Positions 12,493 through 29,884 of a DNA stretch of 29,884 nucleotides are shown in pieces. The position numbers and the translations under genes were made by a program. Origin of the DNA: a virus. Its lineage: Duplodnaviria; Caudoviricetes. The number at the start of each line of letters is the position of its first letter. Position 1 is the stretch's first letter. Under the pieces are notes generated by a model. That model was not told the origin of the DNA, did no database searches, and saw only the letters and a list, made by a program, of their open reading frames with translations. The DNA lies in the IMG/VR virus record IMGVR_UViG_3300025635_000118, positions 1 to 29,884 of that record; one strand, 5' to 3'.

Positions 12493-15113
12493 CGTCTTTT
12501 TAGTCCTCTACAAGTGTAACACTTAGCTCCCCCCATTTTCTTCTTTTTATCTTTCTTTATCTTCCTATCTTCTTCTTTAAAACCTCCTGTTGCAAACTTT
12601 ACTTTAACTGGCTTTCTTTCAGGGGTTCCTTCTTTAGAAGTTTTTTCAGCATTTTTATTAGTGTCTACTTCAACATCTTCAAAGCTTGGAAGATCATATT
12701 TTTTATCTTCAGGTATCCTTATATCTATATTTTTATTTTCTGTTATATCTTGTCCAAAGTCTAATGCATTTAGTATTTGTTGCCAAGGAATATATCTAGT
12801 TATAGGTTTTACAGCTTCTTGAACGTATCTAACTTTTCCAATCCTGCCTAAACCAGGAACAGCTCCAAACATATCTAAAGCTTCCGATGAGGTTGGTTTC
12901 TCTCTTCCAGATGCTTTCCAGCTTTCATATGCTCTTCTAGCATCATCGTGAGACAGAATTCCTGTTGGATCTAAAAATTCTAAAACGTTTTCAGTTATAT
13001 CATCCTTACCCCATTTTTTATAAAAATCAGGTACTTGATTCCAATATATTTCTTCTTCCAATGTAGACTTTCTTATTGGTCTAAAATTAGGTAGTGGTTG
13101 ATTAAGTCCTAAGTCTGGGTATTTACTTGGATCTATATTATAGTTAAATCTATTAGCTTTTACCTCTACCGGATTTACCGTATGAATTGGCATCCAGGCA
13201 GGAGGCGGTGTAGCTTTTGGATAATCTTTTGGTGGATCAGTTTTGAATCCCCCTTTAGCTTTTTTATCCATAGCGTTTTGTATTCCTATTCCTACTCCTG
13301 TTGCTGGAGCTGCTACCCACAGTCTATTAAATAATTCTGCTAATTTTTTTGGATCTTGTTTATCTATAGTTACTGCAAATGCTGGGTCTATTTTAGTATT
13401 ACCAGCTTTTACTTGCTGTAAAATATCATTGGCTCGTTCAGAAGTTATAATTTCACCTGGTTTTATTTCATGTGCTTTCCTTAACTCCATAATTCTAGCG
13501 TGAACTTCTGTAGGGTCTGCTAAGTATCCAGAGTAAGCATCCTCCATACTCATAAATTTAAATGGGTCTTTTCCTTCTTTTGTAAGTTCTTCCCATTTTA
13601 AAAAGTTTTCTTTACTTTTAGGATCTAAATTTTTTAAAATTATATTTCGTTGTCCTGATTTTTTTAATGCTTCTGCAGGTACCCAGTCGTGTGTTCCCTC
13701 ATGGACAGTCGTACTAGCTCTAAAGCCTTGAGGTATTTTAGGGTTTCTTGATATGAAACTTCCGTATTCATCGAAAGGACGGTATACTCCTCGTTTGTAA
13801 AGCTCTCTTGTAGCAGGTGAGACATTATGCATATAGCTTACTCCAAAGTTACCTTGATGCATAGGCCCATTAAATAGCTGAGATGCTAACCCATATTCTT
13901 TAGAACTAGGTTTAAAAGTTTTAGACTGCTCTTTAATTAAATTAATAAGTCTGCCAGGAGTACCAGATACATCTCTAAAATTATAGGCAGCGTTCATATC
14001 TGCATCTATTTTAGCTTGAGTTGATGGATGCTCTATCCAGTTTTTTAACCAAGTATTTCCCTCTTCAATAGCAGCTCTATTAGCTCTTCCTTGGGTCACT
14101 TCTCCTTTTACCTCATTTAAAAATGATTTTGCTCTATTTATTTGTGGTTTAAAAATTTTTCCTGCTAATGGAGCGGACATCAAAGCATCCATCCCCACTT
14201 TTCCTGCTCCACTCCAAGAAGGATTTAATGCAAACTCTCCTAAGTCAGGAGCAAAATTTACAGCTCCTTCCACAGCCCCAACTGCCATACCTACTGGAGT
14301 AAAGTAAGCCGCTGTTTTGAAAGCAGGATTATTAATTGCTAATTCATGACCTTTTATAATGTAGTCCTTCATTCTTCTATCCTCTAGAGCTTTCTCCTCA
14401 TCTGCTGTCATTTTACCAAAAGTTTCAGGATTAAGACCTGCATCTACAATAGACTTTTGGTAAGCTTGTTTATTTTCTCCCTCTGCTAATCTTCTTTTAG
14501 TTTCTGAAGAAATAGAAGTTCTTTGATTGATTGGTAATTTTTCTAAAACTCCTGTTACAGGATTGTACCCATAGTTACCACTATATACAGCACGTCTTAT
14601 CTGATCACTATATCTAGAATCATCTGAATAATTACTTCTACTATCAAACCAGTTTGGATCGTTTTTATATGTATACAACCTATTTTCTGCCCCCATTGAA
14701 GATAATCCTTGGTTTGGAGGATCTTTCTTAAACCCCCCTTTAGCAAATATTGCCTCCCCTTTGTATGACCCAGTTTGATTTGGTACTATCCCTACGTTAG
14801 TCGATCTAGATGAGTCTACTAATGGCTGTTGTTGTTCAGGCATTTGCACTGGAACATTAGCTTGTACTATTGGGGGAGATGATGGGAGTTGTTGTTGAGG
14901 TTGTTGTTGAGGTAACGGAGATGTTGGCTGAAGTGTTTGTGATGCAACAAAATCAGACATCTGCTGAGCTTGTTTAACTCTTTGTTCTTGTTGATACTCA
15001 GCAATTAAATCTCTCCCCTGCTCATATGCAGTAAAAACATCTAATATACTCCCAGGAAAGCCAGATTGTCTAGCTTTAGATAGTAATTCTTTTCTTTTAT
15101 TATTGTCTAACAT
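12486..15113 (-). CDS. Modular putative head-cargo protein with zincin-like metallopeptidase domain
   Basis: HEGTH (13689-13703) plus downstream YLADPTEVHARIMELR; Q/P-rich N-terminus; repeated xxGGFKxD motifs. Confidence 0.65.
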   Translation of the reverse strand: MLDNNKRKELLSKARQSGFPGSILDVFTAYEQGRDLIAEYQQEQRVKQAQQMSDFVASQTLQPTSPLPQQQPQQQLPSSPPIVQANVPVQMPEQQQPLVDSSRSTNVGIVPNQTGSYKGEAIFAKGGFKKDPPNQGLSSMGAENRLYTYKNDPNWFDSRSNYSDDSRYSDQIRRAVYSGNYGYNPVTGVLEKLPINQRTSISSETKRRLAEGENKQAYQKSIVDAGLNPETFGKMTADEEKALEDRRMKDYIIKGHELAINNPAFKTAAYFTPVGMAVGAVEGAVNFAPDLGEFALNPSWSGAGKVGMDALMSAPLAGKIFKPQINRAKSFLNEVKGEVTQGRANRAAIEEGNTWLKNWIEHPSTQAKIDADMNAAYNFRDVSGTPGRLINLIKEQSKTFKPSSKEYGLASQLFNGPMHQGNFGVSYMHNVSPATRELYKRGVYRPFDEYGSFISRNPKIPQGFRASTTVHEGTHDWVPAEALKKSGQRNIILKNLDPKSKENFLKWEELTKEGKDPFKFMSMEDAYSGYLADPTEVHARIMELRKAHEIKPGEIITSERANDILQQVKAGNTKIDPAFAVTIDKQDPKKLAELFNRLWVAAPATGVGIGIQNAMDKKAKGGFKTDPPKDYPKATPPPAWMPIHTVNPVEVKANRFNYNIDPSKYPDLGLNQPLPNFRPIRKSTLEEEIYWNQVPDFYKKWGKDDITENVLEFLDPTGILSHDDARRAYESWKASGREKPTSSEALDMFGAVPGLGRIGKVRYVQEAVKPITRYIPWQQILNALDFGQDITENKNIDIRIPEDKKYDLPSFEDVEVDTNKNAEKTSKEGTPERKPVKVKFATGGFKEEDRKIKKDKKKKMGGAKCYTCRGLKRRV

Positions 15114-15526
15114 TAGCTCAAGAATTTAAGCTTGTACTTAGCTGAGTTTAAAGTTGATTTAATAGCATCTAAATCATTTACAATTTCTGTGTAAGATATT
15201 GTTTCTTGAAGCTTAGTGATTTTATCATGCAATTCTTCAATGTAACTAATTGCTTCTTTTACAGATTTTAACTTAGGGGCTGATGTATCTGGGTAATCTA
15301 ATATCTCTCCAGTTACTCCTTGATATCCTTCGGCAATTGTATCTGCCAAACCTGGTAATGCCTCATATAGCTCATTAAGAGCTTTGTGAGCTGAGTAAGA
15401 TCCTGGTCCTGTTACAGTTAAATGAAGAATGTGAAACTTATTAGAAGCATCTAGCATTTCTACTACTAAACTTGGGACTGATACTTTACTTTTTATAGTC
15501 TGAGCTACTTTATCTAAATATTTCAT
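15113..15526 (-). CDS. Dps/ferritin-like protein (DUF5856-like)
   Basis: HILHLTV.G..SYSAHKALNELYE...DTIAE.YQG ferritin-like ligand pattern. Confidence 0.7.
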   Translation of the reverse strand: MKYLDKVAQTIKSKVSVPSLVVEMLDASNKFHILHLTVTGPGSYSAHKALNELYEALPGLADTIAEGYQGVTGEILDYPDTSAPKLKSVKEAISYIEELHDKITKLQETISYTEIVNDLDAIKSTLNSAKYKLKFLS

Positions 15527-21571: not shown

Positions 21572-21850
21572 TTACTTAGTTACTACCCCAAGAACTGCCA
21601 TTGATTCGTTAATCATAACGTATTCGTTATCATCAATGTTAATAATAACTCCCTCACTTGCAGGGTGAATGTATACAACATCCCCGGTCTTGCATTTGCA
21701 ATCTGGTCCTGCAGCTAGTACTGGAAGTACGTTAGAACGTAATGCTGATGCTGATTTATCTGATAAGATAATTCCTGCATCTGTCACCTTTTTATCAGGT
21801 TTTGGGACAACTAGCCAATCTCTTGTTGGCTCAAAATTTAGATTTTCCAT
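21572..21850 (-). CDS. groES: GroES-like co-chaperonin
   Basis: FEPTRDWLVV, TDAGIIL mobile loop, VLAAGP, GDVV, EYVMINE..VLGVV. Confidence 0.85.
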   Translation of the reverse strand: MENLNFEPTRDWLVVPKPDKKVTDAGIILSDKSASALRSNVLPVLAAGPDCKCKTGDVVYIHPASEGVIINIDDNEYVMINESMAVLGVVTK

Positions 21851-26119: not shown

Positions 26120-26500
26120 CATATAAAATTGTTACAAGGTTACAATGTGTTTTATAAAGGAAAAATGTTGTGATTTTTGTACCTGATAAGGTACATTATA
26201 GTATGATTATTCAGTCATTAGCTTAAAAAACTCCCGATAGGGTATGATAAATCATTCTTTTGTCGAAACTATAGTAAACTTTTGAGACAAACTAATGTGG
26301 ATAATTGTCACCATAATAAGGGTTATCGTTGATAATAATCCCCAATGGGTATCGGCAAATTATAGATTATCAAATTAAGTGAAATATGATAGACAAATAG
26401 ATTTGATGTTAAAGAATGAGAATCAAAGATGAAGTGTCAAGTTTTTTACACCATTTAGTTGACATCGACAAGATGGGGAGTAGAACTCACCAACTGGAAA

Positions 26501-26563
26501 AAAAATTTTTAGGGGGAAATTTTTTGAGGGTTAAAAATTTTTAGATGGGAAATTTTTGAGAGT
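26501..26563. repeat. Imperfect 31-bp direct repeat x2 (32-bp period) of AAATTTTT tracts and G-runs
   Basis: aaaaatttttagggggaaattttttgagggt / aaaaatttttagatgggaaatttttgagagt. Confidence 0.8.
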
Positions 26564-26638
26564 GATGTCCTACGTATTCAAAGACCCCGGCTAAGTATTG
26601 TGCATCGGAATGTCCCGGTCACATAATACCACAATCAT

Positions 26639-26800
26639 ATGCAACTGATTCAATCTTCAAAAGGTGCCGGTTTGGCTACCATCTCTTGGTCATTTCCAGA
26701 AGGAAAACCACCTGTACAAGACATGGACTTTATCTGCTGGGTTCGTCGTGACGATCCGCAGTATGATGCTGTTCTTGCCCATATGAAGGCGGCCCTGTAA
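26639..26800 (+). CDS. 53-aa hypothetical protein, first plus-strand gene (not in ORF track)
   Basis: MQLIQSSKGAGLATISWSFPEGKPPVQDMDFICWVRRDDPQYDAVLAHMKAAL; stop codon sits in a hairpin loop. Confidence 0.6.
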   Translation: MQLIQSSKGAGLATISWSFPEGKPPVQDMDFICWVRRDDPQYDAVLAHMKAAL

Positions 26801-26880
26801 GGGGTCCCTTCGGGGGTTGGGGAGTTCAGGGAATAATCATCACGATGTTAAGTGATTGATTACCAGGATCTCTCCAACTC
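26793..26880 (+). other. Hairpin cluster (GUAA and UUCG tetraloops plus a long irregular stem)
   Basis: CCCT-GTAA-GGGG; CCC-TTCG-GGG; GTTGGGGAG/CTCTCCAAC enclosing TAATCATCAC/GTGATTGATTA. Confidence 0.6.
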
Positions 26881-26940
26881 TTTAAAGGCAAATTGACTAA
26901 TGCCTACAAATTAGTCTATACAATGTTATAACACAATGTT

Positions 26941-27042
26941 ATGGAAAAGCAACAGCAACAAGGTTTCTTTATAGGTGCTTCAGTAGCAACAATCATATGG
27001 TTGTTTGTTATTCTCAGCATCCTATTAGGACCAGTTTTATAG
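26941..27042 (+). CDS. 33-aa single-TM peptide (not in ORF track)
   Basis: MEKQQQQGFFIGASVATIIWLFVILSILLGPVL. Confidence 0.55.
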   Translation: MEKQQQQGFFIGASVATIIWLFVILSILLGPVL

Positions 27043-27108
27043 ACATTACTACCAACAGCATTGAGGTCTGATTTGTAAACACAAGTCTTTCGACTGATAT
27101 GTTGTTGG

Positions 27109-27367
27109 TTTGTATTAATGCACCATTCCAACTTCACAAGGGTTGGCAGTTGTTACATATTATACTCTCATCTAATTGCAGGATATTTTTGCCATGTAAA
27201 CCCTTTTAATTAAGGTAACTTCGTCGCCCTCGGGATTGGGAGTAAGCAAAAATATAATTGTGGTCATGCTAATATAGGGAAAAGAACCATATTAGATAAT
27301 TCCACATTAAGGGTTGCAACCTTGTGAGAGTATGATTATGTAACAACTGAATGCAGAGTGGTACAAA
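27109..27367 (+). ncRNA. Twister ribozyme, type P1, with greatly extended P5
   Basis: P1 UUUGUAU/GUACAAA; U^AA; P2 UGCA/UGCA; P4 CCAAC/GUUGG with loop UUCACAAGG; pseudoknots CAC/GUG and CC/GG; conserved GA after P2; P5 of 24 bp. Confidence 0.8.
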
Positions 27368-27388
27368 TCATTAACTAAATTATCGAAC

Positions 27389-27604
27389 ATGGATAAAATC
27401 ATAATTCCAAACATTGACAGAAATAAATCTTATCATTCATTAGTTGGACATCTATTAAAACCAATTACTAAGTTCATTCCTGTATATCCTACTGGATGTT
27501 CTTGTCAATATGGATATCATTGCGATGATCCAGACTTTGATTGGAATCAACCTGTTCATTACGAAGAGGTTGATATCAATGACCCTAGAACTAGAATTAA
27601 CTAA
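27389..27604 (+). CDS. Hypothetical Cys/His protein
   Basis: 71 aa with CSCQYGYHC; starts 21 nt after the ribozyme. Confidence 0.6.
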   Translation: MDKIIIPNIDRNKSYHSLVGHLLKPITKFIPVYPTGCSCQYGYHCDDPDFDWNQPVHYEEVDINDPRTRIN

Positions 27605-27614
27605 ATCATTAATT

Positions 27615-27848
27615 ATGGATAACATAACAATGAACAAAGAAAGTATGCTGTGGTTCTTCGAAAGAATGCACGGCAGATTACCACAATCAGCTGAGGAATT
27701 TACAGAGTTCTGTAAACCACCAACACATAAACCAACTTTATGTGTAGATTGTGAAGTATGCACAGCATCAGTTGGTATTGATGTGTGTCCAACTTGTGAA
27801 TCAAATAGAACCATGAATGGTTACTATGATGATTATCACAGTGAATAG
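27615..27848 (+). CDS. Zn-ribbon protein (start revised to 27615)
   Basis: CVDCEVC...CPTC; this start avoids overlap with the previous ORF. Confidence 0.6.
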   Translation: MDNITMNKESMLWFFERMHGRLPQSAEEFTEFCKPPTHKPTLCVDCEVCTASVGIDVCPTCESNRTMNGYYDDYHSE

Positions 27849-27943
27849 ACAATAGAAAGGACGTGATATTCGTCGTATTCCTAGGCATGAAGACAAACTG
27901 CCTTATATTCTTTTGGATTTACATAAATCAACATATAAAAATC

Positions 27944-28528
27944 ATGAGTTACAACACTCTAAATTCTGGATCATTGCAGGGATTGCAAATGAATCAGACC
28001 TTGATGGTATCGGCTAGGAAAGTTGCTGGTAACAAAATTCAATTGGAATTTGCTGAGATTCTTCAAAAAGAATCTACTCAAGCAGTTAATCCACTTGCAT
28101 TATTCAACAAATCAGACTCTCGTTTCTCACAAGGAGGAGCTAGACGTGCATGGATGACTGTTGAACCATCAGATGCATCTGCTTTATTAGGCATTGATTT
28201 ATCTGATGCTAACCCATCGTGGACTACTGATGTTTTAGGACGTGAAGTTCTAGCATTAAACATCTTGAATCCACAAGTATTAATTGGTGATGAACTAATT
28301 AATCTAAAGGTTGAAGTTGTAGAAACAACTGAACCTTCTGAGTATCAATCTGCTAATCTTGACACGAGTGCTAAACGTCGTGGAAAAGATGGAGCCTTTT
28401 GTACTCATAAAGGTAAGTACATCTTTGCTAACACTCGTATTGCTTTCAACAAAGCAAATCATGTGTTCTTAGAGATGGATGCAGTTACTACAACAGCTTC
28501 TGTTACTTCTGACGGAATTTATAACTAA
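27944..28528 (+). CDS. 194-aa hypothetical early protein (start revised)
   Basis: ATG 27944 has an A-rich upstream context; followed by strong hairpins. Confidence 0.75.
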   Translation: MSYNTLNSGSLQGLQMNQTLMVSARKVAGNKIQLEFAEILQKESTQAVNPLALFNKSDSRFSQGGARRAWMTVEPSDASALLGIDLSDANPSWTTDVLGREVLALNILNPQVLIGDELINLKVEVVETTEPSEYQSANLDTSAKRRGKDGAFCTHKGKYIFANTRIAFNKANHVFLEMDAVTTTASVTSDGIYN

Positions 28529-28538
28529 TTCTGTCAAA

Positions 28539-28585
28539 ACTTGATAGAGTGTTAAGGGGGAAACCCCTTAACATTTTATTCAAGT
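28539..28585 (+). terminator. Long GAAA-capped hairpin (terminator or processing stem)
   Basis: ACTTGATAGAGTGTTAAGGGG-GAAA-CCCCTTAACATTTTATTCAAGT. Confidence 0.65.
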
Positions 28586-28625
28586 ATGTGTAAATGTGTT
28601 TGAATAAAATTAATCTCTAACTCAA

Positions 28626-28787
28626 ATGAAAAAGCATACCTTCTATGTATTACTGTACTTTGCAGTAATGATTGTTGTAGCATCATTAGTATCTTGTAGT
28701 TCAAAAACTATGAATGTGTATACTAAATGCTATGATAAAGACATCAACGTTAAAAATTATAACCCAAGACCAATTCCTGGTCGATAA
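28626..28787 (+). CDS. 53-aa lipoprotein (not in ORF track)
   Basis: MKKH, hydrophobic core, lipobox LVS-C24. Confidence 0.7.
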   Translation: MKKHTFYVLLYFAVMIVVASLVSCSSKTMNVYTKCYDKDINVKNYNPRPIPGR

Positions 28788-28799
28788 ATTCTAAAACAA

Positions 28800-28931
28800 A
28801 TGGAAGAATCATTCATTTATTTCTACAAATTAGCTGATGGTACTGAGTGTGCCACAACTAATGAAACCTTTGCTGTATTGAGGTCTCAGCAAGAAGGAAC
28901 AGACATTGTATTTGCACAACCAATATCGTAA
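28800..28931 (+). CDS. 43-aa hypothetical protein (not in ORF track)
   Basis: MEESFIYFYKLADGTECATTNETFAVLRSQQEGTDIVFAQPIS; packs tightly between neighbours. Confidence 0.6.
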   Translation: MEESFIYFYKLADGTECATTNETFAVLRSQQEGTDIVFAQPIS

Positions 28932-28935
28932 TAGT

Positions 28936-29103
28936 ATGAAAAAGCATTTACAAATCCACTTAGAATACGAAAAAGTATTCGTGTTCTTCCCCACAATTGC
29001 CTTTGGGGAATGTGAAGCTACTAACACTTATTGGACTGCATTTGTATTTGGTCCATTCAGATTGAAGTTTAAGTTAATTGCTAATATTATAGCACAAGAC
29101 TAG
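28936..29103 (+). CDS. 55-aa aromatic-rich hypothetical protein (start revised)
   Basis: ATG 4 nt after the previous stop. Confidence 0.55.
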   Translation: MKKHLQIHLEYEKVFVFFPTIAFGECEATNTYWTAFVFGPFRLKFKLIANIIAQD

Positions 29104-29115
29104 GGTTAGATAAGG

Positions 29116-29168
29116 ACAAGAAAATGCATTAGAGATTAGTGGTATTATCTCTTTTGCATTTGTCTTGT
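29116..29168 (+). other. Long imperfect hairpin (terminator/processing site)
   Basis: ACAAGA-AAATGCA-AGAGAT paired with ATCTCT-TGCATTT-TCTTGT. Confidence 0.6.
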
Positions 29169-29176
29169 TATATTTG
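29169..29176 (+). promoter_or_regulatory. Bacteroidota -7 box TATATTTG
   Basis: TAnnTTTG just after the hairpin and upstream of a structured region. Confidence 0.45.
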
Positions 29177-29196
29177 TTTAATAAAAGATATAAACT

Positions 29197-29314
29197 AATC
29201 ACGGTACCAGCTCGTGCACTGGCTAGCTACCACACCTTGGATGAACGATGTTAGATTGAGATGTACATATACTTCTAACTAATCACTAAACTCTAGTAAA
29301 CTGGTATCGTGATT
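29197..29314 (+). ncRNA. Candidate structured RNA closed by a 14-bp stem
   Basis: AATCACGGTACCAG/CTGGTATCGTGATT (one G-U); internal GTTAGA/TCTAAC. Confidence 0.5.
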
Positions 29315-29523
29315 TAACTTCTTAGCTCCGTTGATCAGGAGATCGTAAAACACAGAATGCCTCTTGAATCGTACCAGCTATACTATTATGGTATAGACGA
29401 ACTTAATGCACACTATCTGTTCTCATCGTATAGGAGATAGAGTTAGCTTTCTCGACGTCGTTTAAAAAGGTTGACAGCTTGGAAAGACAGCCACCTTCGG
29501 ATGTAACCTTAAAAATAAAAATT

Positions 29524-29793
29524 ATGAGTAAAAGAATTAAATGGTGGAAACTATTAATAGTTTTCTTTTCAGCTATTGTATTAGAGGCAAATAGTATTGC
29601 TGGATTCAGATTTCTTATGGATAAGAACTGGATAGGTATGGTGCTTATGGTAGGCATCAATCCATTCCTATGCTTGCCAATGAATCACTATACGATAGAA
29701 GTTAAAACTTTCAAAGAGAGGGCATTGATTGCTCTTGCATTCAGTTTGGGCTTTTCAGTTGGAGTGGCTACAATTAGACCGTTTTTTATTTAG
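29524..29793 (+). CDS. 89-aa three-TM membrane protein (start revised)
   Basis: Three hydrophobic segments; Glu within the first. Confidence 0.65.
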   Translation: MSKRIKWWKLLIVFFSAIVLEANSIAGFRFLMDKNWIGMVLMVGINPFLCLPMNHYTIEVKTFKERALIALAFSLGFSVGVATIRPFFI

Positions 29794-29884
29794 AAAATAA
29801 AATTAATTAACTATGGGTTATATGAAGTGGGTAAAAAGCCTGATGGATACAGGTCGGTGTGTACAGCTTAAACATAAGTATGTA

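Follow-up and report, generated by a model that had tools for sequence, protein, structure and literature searches.

The stretch of phage DNA analyzed here, 29,884 nt long and referred to as the window, carries on its plus strand, at positions 27109–27367, an RNA element with a twister-like fold whose two halves are separated by a long P5 arm. Covarying relatives of the element form a family in Crassvirales phages, the arm of the window copy contains a second conserved RNA module nested within the first, and the same cargo is found in another twister frame. The element looks like a type-P1 twister and probably works like one. The interpretation that we favor, and regard as reasonably probable, is that it would be an active ribozyme that punctuates a phage transcript while its arm holds a passenger.

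Each of the elements listed in the first-pass annotation was found where it had been placed, with the pairing described. P1 (27109–27115 with 27361–27367), assigned from this pairing and from the enrichment of P1 in the family, consists of six Watson-Crick pairs and one U·G pair. The predicted cleavage site, U27116^A27117, and the A that follows it (27116–27118) are placed by homology with twister. P2 pairs 27119–27122 with 27352–27355, and covariation adds to its 5’ strand a fifth P2 position, 27123, followed by the conserved C27124, which is likely to be the remaining T2 contact (27119–27124). The P4 hairpin (27128–27146, also assigned by covariation) pairs 27128–27132 with 27142–27146 and bears a loop, L4, of 9 nt (27133–27141), in which a U27133·G27141 pair is likely and would leave 7 nt. 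Within this loop, residues 27135–27137 are complementary to 27358–27360 and make up T1. The sequence CC at 27123–27124 is likewise complementary to GG at 27140–27141, but it is doubtful that both pairs form as drawn. The P5 arm (27147–27349, 203 nt) is followed by the 3’ half of the frame (27350–27367), which was placed by P5-anchored alignment and comprises A27351, the P2 3’ strand, G27356, A27357, and the T1 and P1 3’ strands. The helix at the base of the arm (27147–27170 with 27325–27349) contains one bulge and one U·G pair, as had been described, and encloses 154 nt, close to the earlier figure of about 155; its pair probabilities are 0.96–1.0 except at the bulge.

The region 27100–27375 has a folding z-score of -6.5, and none of 200 shuffles was equally stable. 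A descriptor built from the elements of the first-pass annotation matched the real window once and never matched in 150 dinucleotide-shuffled windows. A contig from another run (X2) reproduces 26962–27606 without a differing letter; thus, the element is no assembly error. Immediately upstream lies a conserved, P0-like hairpin (27051–27109, plus strand; pair probabilities 0.76–1.0) that overlaps the first base of P1. When it forms, pairing of 27110–27115 in P1 is still 0.5–0.6 probable. This hairpin is 85–95% identical in L121, L146, L186, L236, and L640; it directly precedes the twister frame in four of these loci, and in L186 about 65 nt are inserted.

The window represents part of a crAss-like phage genome, with a Crassvirus capsid gene matching PF23898; its best metagenome matches are freshwater or aquatic. 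The capsid, tail ring, portal and terminase genes are read leftward and extend to about 25.4 kb, whereas the ORFs read rightward, from 26.6 kb onward, are small and unannotated. The twister-like element is situated in the gene-poor start of the rightward region. The first downstream ORF (27389–27604, plus strand) encodes 71 amino acids without a family match, and its start codon lies 28 nt past the T1 strand. From this gene layout, and from background on crAss-like phages, the rightward transcript is probably early. A search of annotated phage genomes with 26400–29884 gave no match, and a scan for promoters and terminators gave no excess over shuffles. Among 22 RNA contig pieces from four of six matching RNA runs, none spans the twister-like element, starts at 27117 or covers the nested cargo. 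RNA contigs of two runs (X9 and X17) span the region of the 71-aa ORF, from 27382 and 27388 to 27583 and 27584, respectively; they have no loose ends and, being at best a weak hint, speak neither for nor against a cut at 27117.

Several other features of the window were noted. Where the leftward and rightward genes switch, two imperfect 31-nt repeats with alternating A/T and G runs (26501–26563) are a possible origin or packaging signal. An RNA-library contig (X14) covers 26666–26819, matches a 53-aa ORF (26639–26800) exactly, and ends in a G+C-rich hairpin behind that ORF. On the minus strand, a Dps/ferritin-like gene (15113–15526) adjoins the portal gene, and a GroES-like co-chaperonin (21572–21850) is found amid small late-region genes.

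A pattern for the 5’ half of the element retrieved 121 viral loci, from which about 340 such stretches are estimated for the viral collection. Among 132 matches in those loci, in five neighbors found through their proteins, and in the window, 124 have the 3’ half downstream. A reverse scan from the 3’ half added further family members. An earlier pattern scan had yielded 120 loci, mostly chance matches, with only L008, L099, L100, and L113 belonging to the family. Covariation was counted directly over 143 non-redundant rows, one of which is a duplicate artefact of L172 and was kept. These relatives bear out the twister-like fold, with its type-P1 order and halves split by a long P5, that had been read from the window alone. 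The middle pair of T1 is C-G in 122 rows and A-U in 21, without a mismatch, and all five P4 pairs covary, as does the base of P5. The residue before the predicted cut is U in 137/143 rows and was absent from the search patterns, while the two A residues after it are present in all 143 rows and were part of those patterns. In 116 members, the 3’ half could be sought with P5 pairing as the only guide; 104 of them had the expected tail, with the equivalent of G27356 in 103 and of A27357 in all 104, and the other 12 were anchored on other helices or shifted. The length of P1 reaches 4 bp in 43% of the 143 rows, compared with 8% when partners are shuffled, and does not exceed 2 bp in 67 rows. Such an enriched but often weak P1 is expected, since P1 proved dispensable in the twisters tested in PMC11662667.

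The Crassvirales capsid family was found in 38 of 48 carrier records and in all 16 of those that are at least 90% complete. In the bacterial genome collection, both halves were present in 10 of 19 matching loci, all of them on metagenome-assembled contigs, which may be binned phage DNA. In 101/141 members, the predicted site has the end of a hairpin no more than 10 nt away, as against 42% of 1590 control windows, and a start codon follows within 60 nt in 45/108, a modest enrichment over the 30% of controls. In 20 relatives, two hatchet ribozymes and one pistol ribozyme were found near the family, and in several of them hatchet, pistol or tRNA genes lie within 2.5 kb, which agrees with the clustering of ribozymes near phage genes reported in PMC10085705. 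The extra nucleotide that had been remarked in L4 is indeed there, and it is a family trait. The base before the L4 loop is U in 130/130 plain members and C in the 13/13 with an inserted arm. That arm defines a subfamily (L159, L197, L256, L259, L269, L272, L276, L286, L288, L303, L309, L315, L356, and L364), in which two helices occupy the entry to L4; the 14 listed inserts measure 67–244 nt and have a conserved internal loop and two variable tips.

Three further arrangements were observed among the relatives. In L267, L268, L278, L333, and L359, the P5 base and 3’ strand are kept and the catalytic 5’ half is lost, a pyrimidine-rich strand apparently pairing straight across instead; thus, the frame can persist without its catalytic core. 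Two tandem frames, 113–544 nt apart, are present in L134, L136, L155, L199, L236, and L639, and cleavage at both could release a unit whose ends might be joined into a circle. In L099, L100, and L113, a GOLLD-like RNA (positions 1–291 or equivalent; 64–70 bits, below the gathering score of 150) is followed, after a gap of about 10 nt, by the twister frame, as if the frame trimmed the 3’ end of that RNA. In the literature, we found no description of the twister-like family or of the nesting; the supplements of PMC11662667 and PMC10690425 could hold members, and the available text and six supplementary files of PMC10690425 mention neither twister nor ribozyme.

With its relatives, the element shares with type-P1 twister the order P1-P2-P4-P5, the U^A-A at the predicted cut, the G-A before the T1 strand, the 3-bp T1 from L4, the AA in L4, the dispensable P1, and the optional upstream hairpin. 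Optional P0 and P5 elements are described for type-P1 twister in PMC6154101, PMC11662667, and PMC5113685. In contrast to type-P1 twister, the family has no P3, a non-canonical T2 in place of G13-C31 and C14-G30, and, in the position of the essential G13, a pyrimidine, which pairs with the base before the P2 3’ strand. Its members also have an extra base or a two-helix arm at the entry to L4, and always possess a P5 of up to about 200 nt, which in the window holds another module; among annotated twisters, P5 is reported in 1% (PMC6154101).

RF03160 does not detect the family. The native sequence gave no twister hit, as the first-pass annotation had anticipated: Rfam at gathering score returned nothing for the window, a search with RF03160 returned nothing for its own record, and a search of 26900–27600 with E values up to 10 gave only two unrelated weak matches. 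The long insert had been suggested as the cause, an explanation that the relatives do not support. L130, with a P5 of 13 nt, reaches only 15.4 bits with RF03160 (gathering cut-off 67.2), although Rfam aligns its ends to twister-P1, and in 48 carrier records no variant copy was matched. Because short-armed members are missed too, the insert is not the sole reason; the missing P3 and the presence of any P5 also lower the score. The element was not filed in RF03160 since it lacks the canonical T2 and does not reach the Rfam threshold. The one RF03160 match in the 48 carrier records, at 59.5 bits, is to a canonical-type twister (G001:C1:4552–4617, L644), which lies at a different site in a phage with a member of the variant family as well.

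The core is where the family departs most clearly from the twister consensus. Position 27123 is C or U in 143/143 rows, where a canonical twister has a purine at position 13. Against 27351 it forms 115 C-G, 26 U-A, one U·G and one C·A combination, the C·A being that of the window copy; the mutual information of 27123 with 27351 is 0.60, and with its next partner 0.25. The CC/GG pseudoknot had been taken for a compensatory variant of the usual GC/GC, a view at odds with covariation of 27123 with 27351 and not with the nearly invariant G27141. It is also at odds with deep mutational data for the rice twister Osa-1-4, in which the equivalent change, G13C/C31G, has a relative activity of 0.06 (PMC5113685). 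The same source gives 0.02 for G13U/C31A, 0.03 for G13C/A40G, and 0.01–0.06 for pyrimidine-13 double mutants with changes at 31 or 40, as compared with 0.89 for G13A/C31U. These positions were mapped to the window by our own alignment. The CC/GG pseudoknot is therefore probably not plain compensation, and 27123–27351 is probably a fifth P2 pair. From the sequences we infer a remodelled core with a five-pair P2, a T2 cut down to a contact at C27124, and U27133·G27141 closing P4.

The C-G and U-A states of the fifth pair are each combined with both T1 types and have six P4 sequences in common, which descent as two simple clades would probably explain only in part. The C·A of the window would be explained both by a point change and by a crossover of a C-type 5’ end, as in L121, with an A-type body, as in L146 and L236. 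The authors of PMC5113685 guessed that extension of P2 disrupts T2, and their register-shift mutant U12G/G13C keeps an activity of 0.56, which suggests that the P2/T2 boundary is movable. In Osa-1-4, a pyrimidine at position 13 nearly abolishes activity, whether compensated or P2-extended, and any activity of the family would therefore have to be restored by the other changes to its core. Natural twisters tested in PMC11662667 tolerated a weak P1, defects in P2 and P5 arms, and were sensitive to defects in T2; all of the P5-bearing ones cleaved well, albeit in a small sample, and an upstream P0 hairpin lowered cleavage.

In the mechanism that we propose, the rightward, probably early, transcript would likely be cut between U27116 and A27117 by twister chemistry, with A27117 as the predicted general acid and G27356 as the predicted general base. 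The upstream product would be an RNA ending in the hairpin 27051–27109 with a cyclic phosphate, and the downstream product a 5’-OH RNA in which the folded arm precedes the 71-aa gene. The job of cleavage would likely be to separate and stabilize pieces of a long message. The P5 arm would serve as an insertion-tolerant slot, holding in this case a tRNA-half-like module that was likely acquired by recombination between short conserved frames and that is most likely a passenger, not a switch. Observations that count against this reading are the unique C·A of the window copy, the near-dead pyrimidine at position 13 in Osa-1-4, the core-less derivatives, the slowing effect of P0, the modest size of the start-codon enrichment, and the RNA contigs, none of which spans the element.

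Of the alternatives, the one that best withstands the evidence is that the frame is a stable, non-catalytic scaffold derived from a twister, acting as an exonuclease-resistant holder of variable arms and as a recombination handle, or else that the window copy has been weakened. The first three of the observations just listed are what this alternative would lead one to see, the core-less loci having retained the P5 base and 3’ strand, and it also fits the P1 of at most 2 bp in nearly half of the rows and the very high sequence identity of the frame, even in paired columns. We nevertheless consider it rather unlikely, since the near-invariant site U, both A residues, G27356 and A27357, together with a mismatch-free T1, are what a ribozyme needs. 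Moreover, the window copy has the longest P1 of the set, with 10 consecutive pairs (common to L121), and imperfections in P2 were tolerated in the twisters tested in PMC11662667.

Across the family, P5 measures 12–203 nt, with a median of 86. Clustering of 129 interiors by sequence gave 108 clusters; what is kept is the basal helix alone. These observations go against the first-pass suggestion that activity could depend on folding of the insert. A P5 of 312 nt in L172 is an artefact of a nearer 3’ half; once it is dropped, the P5 of the window is the longest of the 143-row set, and that of L640 is about as long and holds other cargo. The arm of the window is itself a second conserved RNA module, which had escaped the earlier annotation. 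This module (27163–27332, plus strand), defined by its own family and by folding, resembles the acceptor/T-arm half of a tRNA. It has a 7-bp stem (27164–27170 with 27325–27331), a junction ending in 27178–27182, and a 5-bp hairpin (27308–27312 with 27320–27324) with a 7-nt loop, and a pseudoknot is predicted between 27178–27181 and 27314–27317. Between these parts lies a variable inner arm of 125 nt (27183–27307, plus strand), delimited by BLAST and the predicted fold, with two helical branches. Because the closing stem of the module stacks on the P5 base of the twister itself, the two make up a 24-bp helix.

The ends of the module, 27163–27182 and 27309–27332, match many carrier loci outside any twister. 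A scan for the module returned 125 sites, of which 99 are non-redundant with both halves (46–203 nt in length); every copy combines the 7-bp closing stem and a variable arm with a 5-bp hairpin whose loop is 7 nt long. All but one of the 99 are free-standing, the window copy alone lying inside a twister frame. Among 93 copies, the loop and the 5’ junction change together in L521 and L571, and this is consistent with a small pseudoknot. The free-standing copies mostly have an A-C-N-A trailer. Counted over all 99 copies, +1 is A in 87, +2 is C in 88, and +4 is A in 71, positions that the search pattern left free; an exact CCA follows in 14. The nested copy has no C at +2 and no A-C-N-A, and both of its flanks are within the P5 helix. 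In 34 of the 99 copies, a twister frame follows shortly downstream within the available flank. Of 135 P5 interiors, 25 had a match outside any P5 span, many of them at cut locus edges, and only that of the window matched a widespread module, with 34 distinct hits.

Mimics of the top half of tRNA include the tRNA-like domain of tmRNA, mascRNA, and t-elements. Like tRNA and these mimics, the module is predicted to have a terminal stem of 7 bp and, 3’ of its variable part, a hairpin of 5 bp that closes a 7-nt loop; its free-standing copies share the A-C-N-A trailer. It differs in its non-canonical T loop, which apparently pairs with the 5’ junction, and in a variable multi-hairpin arm that replaces the D and anticodon arms. 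In the comparison with the tRNA top half, the stem lengths fit, there are a few compensatory changes, and the trailer is common in the free copies but absent from the nested one. The module was rejected as a tRNA, there being no cloverleaf with an anticodon arm or a canonical T loop; ARAGORN found no tRNA genes in the window, and Rfam, run with E values up to 10 on a short copy (L176, 80–210), returned nothing. By-eye readings of the arm as an antisense ribozyme, or as pistol, HDV or hammerhead, had no Rfam support and were dropped.

These likenesses to tRNA raise the alternative that the element is a release cassette, in which the 5’ end would be freed by self-cleavage and the nested module then excised by tRNA-trimming enzymes of the host, giving a stable small RNA whose variable arm would act on the host in trans. 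The trailer of the free-standing copies, the 34 modules with a twister frame downstream, and the three members that start just after a GOLLD-like RNA would all fit such a scheme. The preferences of RNase P and RNase Z, however, lead one to expect hindered trimming of the nested module, whose trailer lacks the C at +2 and whose flanks are locked in the P5 helix. The 7-nt loop is no canonical T loop, an exact CCA is uncommon even in the wider set, and the cargo is not covered by the RNA contigs. The nested form, moreover, was found in two metagenome stretches, one of them the window’s own DNA, and in no viral contig. We judge this alternative improbable.

The cargo itself points to exchange between frames. 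Among all loci compared, the inner arm occurs only in the window’s own DNA (L501) and, with 95% identity, in L502, the two stretches with the nested arrangement; a scan for its inner hairpin gave 10 loci, but BLAST showed no match to the inner arm in any of them. In L502, the 203-nt cargo of the window is set in a frame with a different P4 and with U-A as the fifth pair, and the flanks are unrelated. The few differences between the two cargos are located in a loop, create a wobble or introduce a bulge, so that the predicted fold is kept. The close relatives L121 and L122 carry other cargo at the equivalent locus. One contig (X4) follows the window to 27126 and then passes into another twister body, and two others (X3 and X6, from 2017 runs that may belong to one campaign) bridge the nested module into the 3’ half of a twister. 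The occurrence of one cargo in different frames with different flanks points to swapping of cassettes. One could extend this into a Crassvirales kit of RNA frames, including the remodelled twister and the tRNA-half mimic, nestable and shuffled by recombination. The nested unit of the window would then be a two-stage release cassette, with a variable arm that acts on the host, for example as a decoy for anti-phage nucleases; we mention this as speculation to which we attach little weight.

Finally, we regard as very improbable the reading of the first-pass annotation, a standard type-P1 twister whose T2 has two pairs restored by compensation (C27123-G27141 and C27124-G27140) and whose activity is switched by folding of the insert: both pairs are possible, 27123 could pair with G27141 in 142/143 rows, and in the window it cannot pair with A27351 and is thus free to do so, but it covaries with 27351, the compensated pair is nearly inactive in Osa-1-4, the probability that the insert (segment 27319–27327) sequesters L4 by competing pairing is 0.0, and the cargo is not conserved.

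A parallel to the favored reading, an active ribozyme that would punctuate the transcript, is provided by the theta ribozymes of gut phages, which are likewise phage self-cleaving RNAs (self-cleavage being predicted here) tied to tRNA-type RNAs and are proposed to process phage transcripts (PMC10879173). Theta ribozymes have an HDV-like fold and cut beside real tRNAs, whereas here a twister-like fold encloses a tRNA-half-like module without an anticodon arm.

If the family cleaves, it would provide an active twister with a pyrimidine where the canonical twister tolerates none, and the minimal requirements of the fold would have to be revised; several hundred phage stretches missed by Rfam (the 340 or so estimated for the viral collection) would be added. 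What self-cleaving ribozymes do in bacteria and phages has long been debated, and in this one phage order the same frames are met repeatedly at the boundaries of genes. The window copy is a direct case of one conserved RNA module nested in another and travelling between frames, a counterpart in nature to the insulator and carrier ribozymes of synthetic biology, and together with L502 it makes a natural pair for testing the fifth P2 pair. Even without cleavage, the family would remain a conserved set of scaffolds.

A third conserved RNA-like module is present in the window at 27850–27902. It consists of two hairpins with covarying stems and occurs in many carrier loci, often directly 3’ of the tRNA-half-like module or directly 5’ of a twister frame. 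This region has deep contig cover from other phages in lake metagenomes.
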